Assembly: GCF_003334335.1 (NCBI RefSeq)
Contig: NZ_QOWQ01000004.1
DNA: 64,000 nucleotides
DNA from: Escherichia coli
Lineage (GTDB): Bacteria; Pseudomonadota; Gammaproteobacteria; Enterobacterales; Enterobacteriaceae
Strand: one strand, 5' to 3'
Shown here piece by piece: positions 1-6,000 of this stretch (position 1 is the stretch's first letter; every line of letters starts with the position of its first letter). The position numbers were made by a program.

Positions 1-3000
1 ACTCACCAGAATAGTGACGCTGGCACCCTGTGGTTCGTAATCCTGGCGGGCGATGTTAAGAATATTAGCCCCGATAATGGAACAGGTTTCTGACAGGATT
101 TCGGTCAGACGGTTGGCATTATAGAGTTCATCGATATAAGCAATATAACCGTCGCGCTCTTCGGCAGTTTTGGCGTAGCAGATATCGTAAATACAAAAAC
201 TCAGACTTTTGGTCAGATTATTAAAGCCATGCAGTTTCAGTTTTTTCAATTTCTTATCTTCTCCTTAGGACGGCTGTGAAGCCAGTGCGTCTTGCAGATA
301 CTGAGGTAAGGCAAAAGCTGCCGTATGGATTGCCGGATTGTAATAACGGCATTTCAGGCCAGAGGCGAGAAAACGCGCCTGAATAATTTCGGTTGAGAGA
401 TGGCGTAAGGCGTCGTTATCTGTCGCCCATGCAAAAGTCATGATACCGCCGTAATAGGTCGGGATCGCCGCCTGATAAAAGCCAACGTCGCTGAAGTAAT
501 GGCTGAGTTTGCGATGGCTGTCGATGGCTTCTTCCTGCTGTAAAAAGCAGACGCCGTTTTGTGCGACGAAGATACCGCCAGGATTCAGGCAACGTTTGCA
601 GCCTTCATAAAATGCCGAAGTGAAAAGGCTTTCGCCGGGACCGATAGGATCGGTGCAGTCGGAGATAATGACATCAAAGGTCTGGCTGGTTTGATTAACG
701 AAATTGACGCCATCGTCGATCACCAGCTTAAAGCGCGGATCGTCGTAGCTACCGGCGTTATGGTTGGGTAGATACTGACGGCAGAACGATACGACACCCG
801 CATCGATTTCCACCATCGTGATTGACTCAACGTTTTTATGTCGGGTTACTTCACGCAGCATGGCACCGTCGCCGCCGCCGATAATCAGCACATGTTTCGC
901 GTGACCATGGGCCAGTAGCGGAACATGGGTCATCATCTCATGATAGATAAACTCGTCGCGCTCGGTGGTTTGTACTACGCCATCCAGCGCCATTACGCGA
1001 CCAAATGCAGCGTTCTCAAAAATGATCAGATCCTGGTGATCGGTCTTTTCATGATACAGAACGTTATCTACCGCAAAGTACTGCCCAAACTGGTCGTGTA
1101 GCGTTTCATGCCACTGTTTTTTTTCGGCCATGGGTTGATACCTCCTTTGTTAACACCCGTAAAAAAAGGGCGCAACATAATAGCTAACATTGACCGCGGA
1201 TGCACGGTCAATATTTCTACAAAAAGGTATCAGGGATTATTTGACGTAGGCAAGCAGGCTTAAGGAATCGCGGGCCAGGGCTTTGCATTTTTTAGCGACG
1301 GGAATGCCAATGCCGCTGAGATCGCGGTAGCTGTCTTCACCGAGGGCTTTCATGTCGAAGGTGTCGTAATTACTGAGGTCCCACTGGTTTTGCAGAGCGA
1401 AAAAGACCAGTGCGCGACGAATTTGCCCGTTAGGTAAGTTCTGGTAACCACAATCGTTCTTCAGAAAGACAAAAACTGCCGTTAAATCGGCCATATCTTC
1501 GGCTTCAGACTCGCTGAGCGCGTAACTGTTTGCGCAGACGGCCATCAGGCTGCCGAATAACACTGTTCTGAAAAACGTCTTCATTGCTTCTACCAGGGGC
1601 TTAAAGAAGATAAACGTTAGCACACTGCGAGCGAGGCGACGACCATTATTGTCGATTAAATTGTGTCTGCGGCTTGACCTTCCCGTAAGGGGAAGGACTA
1701 TGCTCAACGTTTGATTTTGTTTCGCCTGCTTAAGAATAAGGAAATAACTATGCAACGTCGTGATTTCTTAAAATATTCCGTCGCGCTGGGTGTGGCTTCG
1801 GCTTTGCCGCTGTGGAGCCGCGCAGTATTTGCGGCAGAACGCCCAACGTTACCGATCCCTGATTTGCTCACGACCGATGCCCGTAATCGCATTCAGTTAA
1901 CTATTGGCGCAGGCCAGTCCACCTTTGGCGGGAAAACTGCAACTACCTGGGGCTATAACGGCAATCTGCTGGGGCCGGCGGTGAAATTACAGCGCGGCAA
2001 AGCGGTAACGGTTGATATCTACAACCAACTGACGGAAGAGACAACGTTGCACTGGCACGGGCTGGAAGTACCGGGTGAAGTCGACGGCGGCCCGCAGGGA
2101 ATTATTCCGCCAGGTGGCAAGCGCTCGGTGACGTTGAACGTTGATCAACCTGCCGCTACCTGCTGGTTCCATCCGCATCAGCACGGCAAAACCGGGCGAC
2201 AGGTGGCGATGGGGCTGGCTGGGCTGGTGGTGATTGAAGATGACGAGATCCTGAAATTAATGCTGCCAAAACAGTGGGGTATCGATGATGTTCCGGTGAT
2301 CGTTCAGGATAAGAAATTTAGCGCCGACGGGCAGATTGATTATCAACTGGATGTGATGACCGCCGCCGTGGGCTGGTTTGGCGATACGTTGCTGACCAAC
2401 GGTGCAATCTACCCGCAACACGCTGCCCCGCGTGGTTGGCTGCGCCTGCGTTTGCTCAATGGCTGTAATGCCCGTTCGCTCAATTTCGCCACCAGCGACA
2501 ATCGCCCGCTGTATGTGATTGCCAGCGACGGTGGTCTGCTACCTGAACCAGTGAAGGTGAGCGAACTGCCGGTGCTGATGGGCGAGCGTTTTGAAGTGCT
2601 GGTGGAGGTTAACGATAACAAACCCTTTGACCTGGTGACGCTGCCGGTCAGCCAGATGGGGATGGCGATTGCGCCGTTTGATAAGCCTCATCCGGTAATG
2701 CGGATTCAGCCGATTGCTATTAGTGCCTCCGGTGCTTTGCCAGACACATTAAGTAGCCTGCCTGCGTTACCTTCGCTGGAAGGGCTGACGGTACGCAAGC
2801 TGCAACTCTCTATGGACCCGATGCTCGATATGATGGGGATGCAGATGCTAATGGAGAAATATGGCGATCAGGCGATGGCCGGGATGGATCACAGCCAGAT
2901 GATGGGCCATATGGGGCACGGCAATATGAATCATATGAACCACGGCGGGAAGTTCGATTTCCACCATGCCAACAAAATCAACGGTCAGGCGTTTGATATG

Positions 3001-6000
3001 AACAAGCCGATGTTTGCGGCGGCGAAAGGGCAATACGAACGTTGGGTTATCTCTGGCGTGGGCGACATGATGCTGCATCCGTTCCATATCCACGGCACGC
3101 AGTTCCGTATCTTGTCAGAAAATGGCAAACCGCCAGCGGCTCATCGCGCGGGCTGGAAAGATACCGTTAAGGTAGAAGGTAATGTCAGCGAAGTGCTGGT
3201 GAAGTTTAATCACGATGCACCGAAAGAACATGCTTATATGGCGCACTGCCATCTGCTGGAGCATGAAGATACGGGGATGATGTTAGGGTTTACGGTATAA
3301 AAAGACCGTATTCGGAAATATGCCCGGATCTCTCCGGGCATTAAACTGATGACAAACGCAAATCTGCCTGATGCGCTACGCTTATCAGGCCTACGCTAGC
3401 TGTGCAATCCATTGATTTTGCACAATTTTGTAGGCTGGATAAGGCGTTCACGCCGCATCCGGCATGAACAACGCGCACGTTGTCAGCAATCTGAGCAAGT
3501 CTTACTTCACATCATCCGGCAGCGCATAAGCCACAATATAGTCGCCCATCTTCGTACCAAATGAACCGTGACCGCCTGCGGAGATCACCACATACTGCTT
3601 ACCATTCACTTCATAGGTCATTGGCGTAGCCTGACCACCCGCTGGTAAACGACCCTGCCACAGTTTTTCACCGTTGCTCATGTTGTAAGCGCGCAGGTAG
3701 TTATCTGCCGTAGCGGCGATAAACAGCACGTTACCCGCCGTGGAGATTGGCCCGCCCAGCATCGGCATACCCATATTGAACGGCACCGGAACCGGCATCG
3801 GGAACGGCATACTGTCCTGCGGCGTACCAATACGTTTCTTCCACACCACTTCATTAGTTTTCAGATCCAGCGCCGAGATATAACCCCATGCTGGCTGTTT
3901 ACATGGCAGACCAAATGGTGAGAGGAACGGGTTGAGCGTGACACCATACGGTACACCGTACTGTGGCTGAATGCCGGATTCCGTACCCGTGCCTTTGGCA
4001 TCTTTCGGCTGCTCCATCGGGTTGCCAGGACCACGCGGGATCAGTTTCGAAACAAACGGCAGTGCCATTGGGTTGGCAATCGCCACTTCACGATTTGGAT
4101 CAACGGAAATCCCGCCCCATTCGAACATCCCCAGGTTACCCGGGAAGACCAGCGTACCCTGTTCAGATGGCGGGGTGAAAATGCCTTCATAGCGCATCTG
4201 GTGGAACATCACGCGGCACACCAGTTGGTCAAACATGGTGGCTCCCCACATATCCGCACCGCTCAAATCTTTCGTCGGACGGAAGCTCAGTTCAGAAAAC
4301 GGTTGAGTTGGGGTTACGTAATCGCCTTTCGCTGCACCTTGGGGAACCGGTTTTTCCGGTGCCGGAACCACCAGTTCGCCATTACGACGATCGAGCACAA
4401 AAATGTTGCCGGTTTTCGCCGGAGCGTAAATAACTGGCACTTTCTGACCATTAACGGTGATGTCCGCCAGCGTCGGCTGTGCCGGAAGATCCATGTCCCA
4501 CAGGTCGTGGTGAACGGTCTGGTAGCTCCACGCCAGTTTCCCGGTAGTGGCATTCAGCGCCAGAATCGAGCTGGCATAACGTTCCTGTTCCGGTGTGCGG
4601 TTACCGCCCCAGATATCCGGCGTGGTCACGCCCATCGGCAGATAGACCAGATCCAGCTTCGCGTCATAGGCCGCTGGTGCCCAGGAGTTTGGCGAGTTAA
4701 AGGTAAAGGTGTGTTCGTCAGACGGGATTGCGTTCGGATCTTTCGCGCCGGGATCAAAAGCCCACAGCAGCTCCCCGGTGTTGACATCAAAACCACGGAT
4801 CACGCCAGACGTTTCGCGGGTTGAGAAGTTATCGGTAACTGAACCGGCCATCACGATGGTTTTATCGGTGATAATCGGTGGCGAAGTCGGTTCATACAGA
4901 CCCGGTTTGGTGTCTGGCATATTGCTTTGCAGATTGAGCACGCCTTTATTGGCGAAGGTTTCGCACAGTTTGCCGTTTTCAGCGTTAATCGCAATCAGTC
5001 GACCATCATTGACCGGAAGAATGATACGACGCGGGCAATCCGCCATCACTTCCGGCGAAGCGGTTTCTGCTTTGGCTTCATGATAAGAGACACCACGGCA
5101 GGTTACGTGCTGGAAAGACTCGTTGGTTTTCAGCTCAGGATCGTAATGCCATTTCTCTTTGCCGCTGGCGGCATCAAGCGCAAACAGGCGCTGGTGAGCG
5201 GTACACAGGTAAAGGGTGTCGCCCACTTTAATCGGCGTCACTTCATTGGTGATTTCACCCGGATCGTTCGGCTGCTTCACATCGCCAGTACGGAACACCC
5301 AGGCTTCTTTCAGATTATGGACGTTATCGGCGTTAATTTGTTTCAGCGGCGAAAAGCGTTGACCTTCCTGATTACGACCATAGGCAGGCCAGTCCTGATC
5401 GGCTACGGGGGAGATAGCTTCAGCAGGTGTGGCATCGGCGCTTAAGGTGCCGTTGATCTCCTGCGGATCGTTAAATCCGGCCCAGGTCAGGATACCACCG
5501 CTAATCAGCAGTGCGACCACCAGTGCGGCAACTGCGCCGCTGGCAGGAATGACCAGGCGACGCCAGACAAACGGCAGGATCAGCCAGATGCCGAAGAAGA
5601 CCAGAATGTCGCTGCGCGGAGTCAGCGCCCAGAAGTCGAAACCAACTTCCCAGACGCCCCAAATCATGGTGCCGAGCAGCAGGGCTGCGTATAGCCAAAG
5701 CGCGGCGCGTTTACTGCGCCACAGCATCCAGGCGACGCCGAGCATCACAAGGCCAGCGATAGGGTAGTACCAGGAGCCGCCAATCGCGACCAGCCAGCCT
5801 CCGCCAATGAGTAGATACAGCCCGCAAAGCGCTGCAAAAAGGGCTGTTAGCGTGACGAGTAATCGTCGCGAGCCTGTATTGTTAATTGCCATAAAGAGAC
5901 ACCATTTCAATTCATTAATATTTTAGTAGCAATTAATTATAGGTTTTAACATGTGTGATCGTCATCACAATTCGAGCTTTATTAACAGATTCCGCGAATG

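Follow-up and report, generated by a model that had tools for sequence, protein, structure and literature searches.

Of the three main systems with which Escherichia coli defends itself against copper, one is CueO, and its gene lies within the 64,000-nucleotide stretch of E. coli DNA analysed here (assembly GCF_003334335.1, contig NZ_QOWQ01000004.1; hereafter the 64-kb window). The encoded protein carries a short segment that is strikingly rich in methionine, which raises the question of what this segment is and what it does for the enzyme. The gene itself (Table 1), whose neighbours are yacC and gcd, is cueO, and its product is a three-domain multicopper oxidase of the CueO subfamily. At the DNA level it shows 100% identity to the E. 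coli K-12 chromosome, whose annotation names the gene multicopper oxidase CueO. The original prediction was right to read the segment as an established CueO feature. The gene was found in 5,425 of 5,426 complete E. coli genomes, and its 516-residue product matches the chains of PDB entries 5b7e and 1kv7 residue for residue. The NCBIfam CueO equivalog NF008205 matches over the full length with 982.9 bits (cut-off, 525), and the second NCBIfam family to match, FtsP, reaches 297 bits, under its own cut-off of 581. Pfam matches delimit three cupredoxin domains (Cu-oxidase_3 at residues 55-165, Cu-oxidase at 227-293, and Cu-oxidase_2 at 399-516), which an AlphaFold2 model renders as beta-sandwich domains with a mean pLDDT of 92.8. 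Given a twin-arginine pair (R3 R4) and a Pfam TAT_signal match at residues 1-20, the product is predicted to be exported to the periplasm by the Tat pathway; the crystallised mature chains begin at residue 29. Published work on exactly this sequence has shown that the enzyme is active as a cuprous oxidase and that it contributes to copper tolerance (PMC11494321, PMC12510620). An 81-aa antisense open reading frame at 2848-3093 was dismissed, as it lies wholly within a gene with a crystallised product and has no support.

Table 1. Coordinates of cueO and its features in the 64-kb window.
Feature	Position	Strand	Description
cueO promoter with MerR/CueR-type operator (predicted)	1674..1704	+	TTGACC, 19-nt spacer, TATGCT
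cueO coding sequence	1750..3300	+	516 codons plus stop; periplasmic multicopper oxidase (cuprous oxidase) CueO
Tat (twin-arginine) signal peptide (predicted)	1750..1833	+	residues 1-28
Methionine-rich insert	2812..2949	+	residues 355-400, in frame, 46-residue peptide
Insert, first half: Met-rich helix	2812..2886	+	residues 355-379; 9 Met, 0 His
Insert, second half: flexible, variable-length Met/His/Gly/Asn loop	2887..2949	+	residues 380-400 (21 residues)
Codons D439-M440-M441, domain 3	3064..3072	+	D439 and M441 complete the Cu5 ligand set and face the insert (PMC11494321)
Domain-3 copper motifs	3076..3279	+	HPFHIHG and a 12-residue motif; T1 and trinuclear-cluster ligands

Upstream of the gene, the promoter spacer contains a perfect inverted repeat (CCTTCCC-N5-GGGAAGG), and a direct search for the promoter pattern returned a single match in the 64-kb window and none in 100 shuffles. 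A standard sigma-70 scan of the region upstream of cueO, in which spacers of 16-18 nt were allowed, found no promoter because the actual spacer is one nucleotide longer than this range. From established knowledge of the cue regulon we take the predicted operator to be a CueR site, and the combination of a MerR-type promoter, a long spacer, and a dyad suggests that this copy of cueO would fit the CueR-controlled regulon.

The methionine-rich segment occupies the gap between the Pfam Cu-oxidase and Cu-oxidase_2 matches. The range first proposed for it, 2809-3010, is in frame but starts one codon early (at S354) and ends about 20 codons late; of this extension, residues up to 407 do belong to the published “Met-rich domain” deletion, which spans 358-407 (PMC11494321). 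Methionine accounts for 14 of the 46 residues (30%) as opposed to 15 of the 470 residues outside the segment (3.2%; hypergeometric p = 8e-9). None of 20,000 shuffles of CueO reached this density (best 46-residue window: maximum 12 Met, mean 6.3), and when all 72 open frames of 150 aa or more in the 64-kb window are compared, the next-best 46-residue stretch holds 7. All six MxxM motifs of CueO fall within the insert, which also contains three MxM motifs. The segment had been described as rich in both methionine and histidine, and the second half of this description is weak: the 5 histidines among 46 residues represent a modest excess over the 3.8% seen elsewhere in CueO (p = 0.045), they are confined to residues 380-400 (two more follow at 405-406), and they are lineage-specific, with at least 4 histidines in the inserts of only 6 of 130 diverse representatives.

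All published ligands of the Cu5, Cu6, Cu7, T1, and trinuclear-cluster sites are present at their published residue numbers. Within the helix half, M355 and D360 correspond to Cu5, M358 and M362 to Cu6, and M364, M368, and M376 to Cu7 (assignments from PMC11494321), an exact match that bears out the earlier description of a known Met-rich region over the substrate site. The full Cu5 set of two methionines and two aspartates (M355, D360, D439, and M441) is invariant across enterobacterial orthologues. The catalytic motifs HxH, HxH, HxxHxH, and HCHxxxHxxxxM are likewise complete, including H101, H103, H141, and H143 as well as the domain-3 ligands of the T1 copper (H443, C500, H505, and M510) and of the trinuclear cluster (H446, H448, H499, and H501). 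In an alignment of 80 sequences, H443, H446, H448, C500, H501, and H505 were invariant, and H499 and M510 were conserved in at least 90%.

Structure prediction of the insert, proposed alongside the original prediction as a check, divides the segment into two parts. AlphaFold2 places a helix at residues 357-376, with block pLDDT values of 93-95 over 351-370 and 83 over 371-380, followed by a low-confidence stretch at 381-400 (pLDDT 64-67); the loop as a whole comprises 5 Met, 5 His, 5 Gly, and 3 Asn. In most crystal structures there is no electron density for the loop after the Met-rich helix, and it is fully resolved only in PDB 3OD3 (PMC6155172). The prediction thus agrees with crystallography, in which a Met-rich helix gives way to a loop that is mostly not resolved. 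The same division is apparent among enterobacterial orthologues, in which the helix half aligns without gaps (88-92% identity in Citrobacter), as opposed to 31-69% identity in the loop half, where every insertion or deletion falls.

Taken together, we consider that this stretch is the known Met-rich insert of E. coli CueO, with roles in Cu5 docking and in the collective recruitment of Cu(I), with a probability of about 0.92. The catalytic roles are taken from published experiments, to which we add gene identity, anatomy, statistics, ligand conservation, architecture, and variation. In this scheme, CueO oxidises toxic Cu(I) to Cu(II) in the periplasm, coupled to O2 reduction, and the insert, joined in at the start of cupredoxin domain 3, lies over the type-1 copper site. 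Its amphipathic helix bars bulky organic substrates, and M355 and D360, joined by D439 and M441 of domain 3, make up Cu5, a labile fifth copper site at which substrate Cu(I) docks and gives up its electron to the T1 copper. The remaining helix thioethers provide the crystallographic Cu6 and Cu7 sites, and, along with those of the loop, they act as collective soft and transient Cu(I) ligands that strip Cu(I) off strong chelators and pass it to Cu5. Consistent with this, enzymes lacking the insert retain 10-20% of their activity on Cu(I)-BCA and show normal activity on unchelated Cu(I), and Cu5 has been identified as the only substrate site. Single mutants of Cu6 or Cu7 display wild-type activity; a double Cu6/7 mutant was considered an intrinsically less active enzyme preparation (PMC11494321).

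The insert could also be mainly a steric lid that holds phenolics and other organic molecules of the periplasm off the T1 copper and so restricts the enzyme to acting as a metallo-oxidase, its methionine richness being secondary. We regard this as possible, although not probable. The insert indeed covers the T1 site in crystallised CueO (PMC11494321, PMC6155172), its removal raises phenol oxidase activity about 33-fold according to work cited in PMC11494321, and laccase activity rises with the G304K mutation, which displaces the helix (PMC11494321, PMC6155172). It is, moreover, the helix half that is conserved. A lid would not, however, need to be 30% methionine, and deleting the insert specifically reduces the oxidation of chelated Cu(I) (PMC11494321). 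Distant homologues provide a further argument. In a set of 130 diverse homologues, all with their catalytic copper ligands intact, 4 to 78 residues lie between the anchors that flank 56 residues in CueO. In 66 of the set there are 10 residues or fewer, so that half of these homologues have no insert or one of just 4-10 residues. Met-rich inserts of 20-78 residues are nonetheless found at this same position in 16 of the 130, in sequences that are otherwise unrelated, which argues for selection on composition. The D and M equivalent to D439 and M441 were detected in only 7 of the 130, with positions placed by offset from the HxxHxH motif; Cu5 positions were not reliably aligned by MAFFT across 132 very diverse homologues. 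A lid and a role in Cu(I) oxidation are compatible in any case, and the lid is a complement to the main reading more than a rival.

Variation in length and composition between species, as originally noted, is thus evident at the scale of the 130 homologues, and between close species it is almost entirely restricted to the second half of the insert. This pattern raises the question of whether the loop at 380-400 is a neutral, low-complexity tail that drifts by replication slippage and has no selected function, such that the helix alone matters. The confinement of all indels among close orthologues to the loop, as well as its low pLDDT, would be expected of such a tail, and the Citrobacter freundii gene carries at this position a 15-nt tandem repeat (4 copies, 88% match) that encodes HGNMN, with alleles of 539 and 544 aa. 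Deletion of the insert is also tolerated in vivo (PMC11494321). Several observations nevertheless make neutrality rather unlikely. The 39 intact cueO copies from 40 sampled E. coli genomes all share one loop length and show no indel anywhere in the insert, and in four E. coli strains that differ from this gene at 2.5-3.2% of nucleotides G399S was the sole change in the insert. Between orthologues, the Met/His/Gly composition of the loop is held while its sequence shifts, and the larger insert of Hafnia CueO is associated with higher activity on strongly chelated Cu(I) (PMC12041951). In E. coli, Tandem Repeats Finder detected no tandem DNA repeat that could serve as a substrate for slippage across the insert region (2700-3100), and a general repeat search returned short chance pairs only.

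Several apparent exceptions were set aside. The lone divergent E. coli match, in strain L37 (78.9% identity), was considered as a variant insert and rejected: its cueO is annotated as frameshifted, has an internal stop, and reads as garbage in every frame, and it is a poor-quality or decayed copy. Two shorter close relatives that seemed to be natural insert deletions (P0158, 471 aa; P0161, 470 aa) proved on alignment to have an intact insert and to lack about 45 residues of domain 2; both derive from short metagenome contigs, and their gaps are likely assembly artefacts. A further homologue, P0152, has an internal duplication and a truncated C-terminus.

From these comparisons, we tentatively suggest that the insert may consist of two modules that evolve differently. 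The catalytic helix (355-379) would be fixed, and the His/Met/Gly/Asn loop (380-400) would lengthen or shorten by the gain and loss of a short tandem repeat, the 15-nt unit encoding HGNMN. This proposal is drawn from sequence comparison, and we would not give it more than a small chance of being correct. If true, the loop would let evolution adjust how much Cu(I) the insert can capture, or would adjust some function that depends on histidine. The contrast between a conserved helix half and a variable loop half, and the tandem-repeat origin of the variable half in Citrobacter, are the modest additions of this analysis.

Improbable, finally, is the idea that the insert serves mainly in maturation, by capturing Cu(I) to load the four catalytic coppers of CueO when copper is scarce, or in docking CusF or another Cu(I) carrier of the periplasm: it was raised as a possibility given the small effect of the deletion on resistance in vivo (PMC11494321), and copper-handling proteins often bear Met-rich motifs, but complementation results argued against an essential partner interaction (PMC11494321), and neither the sequence nor the neighbouring genes suggest a partner. 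Some findings speak against the main reading, with Cu(I) docking at Cu5 and collective recruitment by the insert. Loss of the insert lowers copper resistance only slightly in vivo in the conditions that were tried (PMC11494321), and without oxygen it is catalysis by CueO, and not how much copper the insert can bind, that makes a difference (PMC12510620); recruitment may therefore weigh more or less in the living cell. The lack of effect of a hairpin deletion in Thermus thermophilus CueO, described below, also speaks against this reading. The suggestion that the insert “may tune copper specificity” is looser than the evidence: experiments have not revealed a shift in metal specificity, and what they do show is that bulky organics are excluded and that Cu(I) is taken from strong chelators, the latter better with a larger insert (PMC11494321, PMC12041951).

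Overall, the Met-rich segment is real, correctly recognised, and already explained, and there is nothing new in the observation itself: it is textbook-level knowledge, illustrated by dozens of crystal structures, that this insert makes a cuprous oxidase out of a laccase-type scaffold. The Met-rich region of E. coli CueO (YacK; PDB 1KV7, 1N68, 3OD3, 3NT0; deletion variant 2YXV) is the same object, identical in sequence and without any difference. A close parallel is the Met-rich domain of Hafnia alvei CueO (PDB 8R4F; deletion variant 8R4H), which is found at the same position, shares the same Cu5 ligands, and likewise begins with a Met-rich helix and continues as a Met/Gly/His loop, but with 22 additional residues and 6 additional methionines; histidine is nowhere mentioned in that report (PMC12041951). 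A representative in our set that may correspond to it (P0001; 546 aa, 65% identical to E. coli CueO) has M, D, D, and M at the Cu5 positions and 78 residues between the anchors. Citrobacter CueO is 84-87% identical to the E. coli protein overall, with a loop up to 28 residues longer through HGNMN-type repeats, which accounts for its length of 519-544 aa. At a greater distance stand other bacterial metallo-oxidases with Met-rich segments near the T1 copper. One of them, the multicopper oxidase of Thermus thermophilus (PDB 2XU9; E = 4e-53), is a three-domain homologue whose Met-rich element takes the form of a short hairpin instead of a helix and loop; deletion of this hairpin left both phenol and cuprous oxidase activities unchanged, as cited in PMC11494321.

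Other relatives and analogues delimit the feature further. In a short-insert homologue (P0020), only 4 residues separate the anchors, and the BLASTP alignment with CueO is gapped over 355-428. E. coli FtsP/SufI (PDB 2UXT) shares the three-cupredoxin fold and Tat export, is devoid of the Met-rich insert, and to our knowledge has no copper ligands. The Mets motifs (MxM, MxxM) of PcoA, Pseudomonas syringae CopA, CusF, and Ctr1 form clusters of thioether Cu(I) ligands, as does the CueO insert. This likeness, which involves unrelated proteins or positions, is probably one of chemistry and not of ancestry (see also PMC6155172).

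Window positions 1600-3400 were 100% identical to the E. coli K-12 chromosome, where the gene is annotated as cueO (multicopper oxidase CueO) and flanked by yacC and gcd, the same neighbours as in the window, and this region was present in 5,425 of 5,426 complete E. coli genomes (at least 97% identity over at least 80% of the length). The product matched PDB 5b7e identically over all 516 residues, and its mature form (29-516) PDB 1kv7 and about 30 further CueO entries, with a score of 983 bits against the NCBIfam CueO equivalog (cut-off 525). A TTG start at 1711, 13 codons upstream, taken from a mechanical ORF list, was rejected because the annotated and crystallised protein begins at ATG 1750; the 1711-1749 (+) extension, which runs across the promoter and 5' leader, is an ORF-calling artefact. 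In strain STK78-E (NZ_CP162185.1), the cueO-region match is interrupted by an IS4-like ISVsa5 transposase, and 10 of 5,436 insert-region matches lie on records labelled as plasmids.

Features of cueO, its product and other window elements (nt, window coordinates; aa, CueO residues; ligands numbered as in PMC11494321)
Feature	Position	Strand	Details
cueO promoter	nt 1674-1704	+	19-nt spacer; perfect dyad CCTTCCC-N5-GGGAAGG (TTGACCTTCCCGTAAGGGGAAGGACTATGCT)
cueO CDS	nt 1750-3300	+	ATG start at 1750; 516 residues; K-12 annotation and crystallised protein
Met-rich peptide	nt 2812-2949	+	46 residues (355-400), cueO frame
GC-rich hairpin downstream of cueO	nt 3320-3341		AUGCCCGGAUCUCUCCGGGCAU
REP-like palindrome pair, past hairpin	nt 3366-3463		One a REP consensus match, 1 mismatch (3430-3463)
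Second REP-consensus match	nt 38222-38255	-	2 mismatches
HtrA 5' UTR thermometer	nt 45511-45556	+	Rfam, 77 bits
t44 RNA	nt 54427-54513	+	Rfam, 83.5 bits
CssrA sRNA	nt 55352-55461	+	Rfam, 136 bits
Tat signal	aa 1-20		Pfam
Multicopper-oxidase domains (3)	aa 55-165, 227-293, 399-516		Pfam
Cu5 ligands	M355, D360, D439, M441		All present
Cu6 ligands	M358, M362		Both present
Cu7 ligands	M364, M368, M376		All present
T1 ligands	H443, C500, H505, M510		All present
Trinuclear cluster ligands	H101, H103, H141, H143, H446, H448, H499, H501		All present

The original prediction of a strikingly Met- and His-rich insert was solid for methionine and over-stated for histidine. Residues 355-400 hold 14 Met (30%), 8 Gly and 5 His, against 15 Met (3.2%) and 18 His (3.8%) in the other 470 residues (hypergeometric p = 8e-9 for Met), and all six MxxM spacings of the protein; 20,000 protein shuffles never reached 14 Met (best 46-residue window: mean 6.3, maximum 12). 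The His enrichment is real but marginal (p = 0.045), with all five residues within 380-400. Among all 72 open frames in the 64-kb window that reach 150 aa, the next-best 46-residue stretch held 7 Met. The second-richest stretch near the insert, DSMPFPMPVPVPFNMGMPMLGG in gcd (3502-5910, -), has 6 Met per 46 residues, far below the CueO insert and inside the window's normal range. The predicted range, 2809-3010, is in frame but loosely bounded, beginning at S354 and overrunning the peptide by 20 codons. Antisense to the Met-rich region lies a His-rich 81-aa ORF with a GTG start (2848-3093, -), which found no support as a gene and most likely arises simply from the richness of the sense strand in ATG/CAT.

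Identification of the segment as the known Met-rich region of CueO held, with every published ligand residue at its published number (PMC11494321), and the insert occupies exactly the part of the protein devoid of Pfam domain coverage. An AlphaFold2 model (80-sequence input alignment; mean pLDDT 92.8) placed a confident helix at 357-376, with pLDDT falling to 64-67 over 381-400. This agrees with crystals, in which a Met-rich helix is followed by a loop left unresolved in most structures and fully visible only in 3OD3 (PMC6155172).

Searching 1.84 billion cluster representatives gave 13,880 homologues; the 132 of the top 150 that were close to full length were aligned, and 130 of them kept the catalytic copper ligands. 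Among these 130, the stretch between anchors equivalent to 353 and 410 ranged from 4 to 78 residues (median 10), bearing out the expected variation between species: 66 had 10 residues or fewer, 16 had at least 20 residues with at least 20% Met, 10 had a long insert that was not Met-rich, and only six had at least four His. Pairwise alignment with the short-insert homologue P0020 showed the gap directly. Judged from these lengths and compositions, Met-rich inserts are recurrent but not universal at this site, and are otherwise unrelated in sequence, in agreement with the weak conservation already published for the Met-rich domain (PMC11494321, PMC12041951).

Published kinetics, mutants and deletions, obtained on exactly the same protein, best support a reading in which the insert would act as a lid over the type-1 (T1) copper, as half of the substrate Cu(I) site Cu5, and as a collective, transient Cu(I)-recruiting surface. 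The helix covers T1 and hinders bulky organic substrates (PMC11494321; PMC6155172), and taking the insert away is reported to increase the oxidation of phenols some 33-fold (cited in PMC11494321; also PMC6155172). Cu5, to which the insert contributes M355 and D360 and domain 3 contributes D439 and M441, is now regarded as the sole Cu(I)-oxidation substrate site; single Cu6 or Cu7 mutations had no effect, and for the double Cu6/7 variant the conclusion was that the preparation itself was inherently less active (PMC11494321). Deleting the insert left 10-20% activity with Cu(I) as the strong BCA complex, essentially full activity on unchelated, electrogenerated Cu(I), and near wild-type copper resistance in vivo (PMC11494321). 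Under anaerobic conditions, catalysis matters and the insert's copper-binding capacity does not (PMC12510620). Hafnia alvei CueO, whose insert is larger and Met-richer than that of E. coli, outperforms the latter specifically on strongly chelated Cu(I), in a paper that never mentions histidine (PMC12041951). An exclusively steric role would also fit these data, although it leaves the recurrent selection for Met unexplained. The predicted tuning of "copper specificity" is vaguely worded, while the remaining description was correct save for the coordinates and histidine.

In close orthologues, namely those of Citrobacter spp. (84-87% identical) and one 65% identical representative, residues 355-379 were gap-free and 88-92% identical to E. 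coli, as conserved as the remaining enzyme, whereas residues 380-400 were 31-69% identical and contained every indel. Citrobacter freundii CueO has 539 aa (544 in a rarer allele), the extra residues being HGNMN-like units encoded by a 15-nt tandem repeat (four copies, 88% match; contig L007, 2673-2732); no tandem repeat was detectable in E. coli cueO. In the C. freundii contigs L007 and L008, the yacC-like pilotin gene upstream is conserved and a methyl-accepting chemotaxis protein gene replaces gcd downstream, so that only one side is syntenic with E. coli. Residues 380-400 could plausibly be a neutral, slippage-driven tail between genera, but this fits poorly with the Hafnia kinetics and with the constancy of the loop within E. 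coli: a 281-nt query spanning the insert matched without any change of length in 39 of 40 genomes evenly spaced down the match ranking, and in four strains with 2.5-3.2% cueO nucleotide divergence the insert was unchanged or carried only G399S. In the fortieth genome, strain L37 (L002; NZ_CP034589.1, 977470-979002), the annotation of cueO records a frameshift and an internal stop, and the insert region, at only 79% identity, has no readable translation in any frame; either the gene has decayed or its sequence contains a series of read errors. Published work has also speculated that the insert may act in maturation or partner docking.

The promoter dyad is of a putative MerR/CueR operator type, and a generic sigma-70 scan missed this promoter because of its long spacer. 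Downstream, folding of the complete 203-nt spacer gives z = -4.8. Between cueO and gcd lie about 200 nt in K-12, KV7 and ChlosBP-23-1 versus only 46 nt in SA186 and 95JB1 (L003 and L005 among the loci), so the REP block is presumably present or absent between strains. The three Rfam matches, all above gathering thresholds, are known elements unrelated to cueO.

Overall, only two descriptive points are mildly new, namely that a conserved helix half is sharply set off from a loop half prone to indels, and that a 15-nt tandem repeat underlies loop expansion in Citrobacter; the insert itself, its location, copper sites, between-species variability and likely role are all already in the literature.
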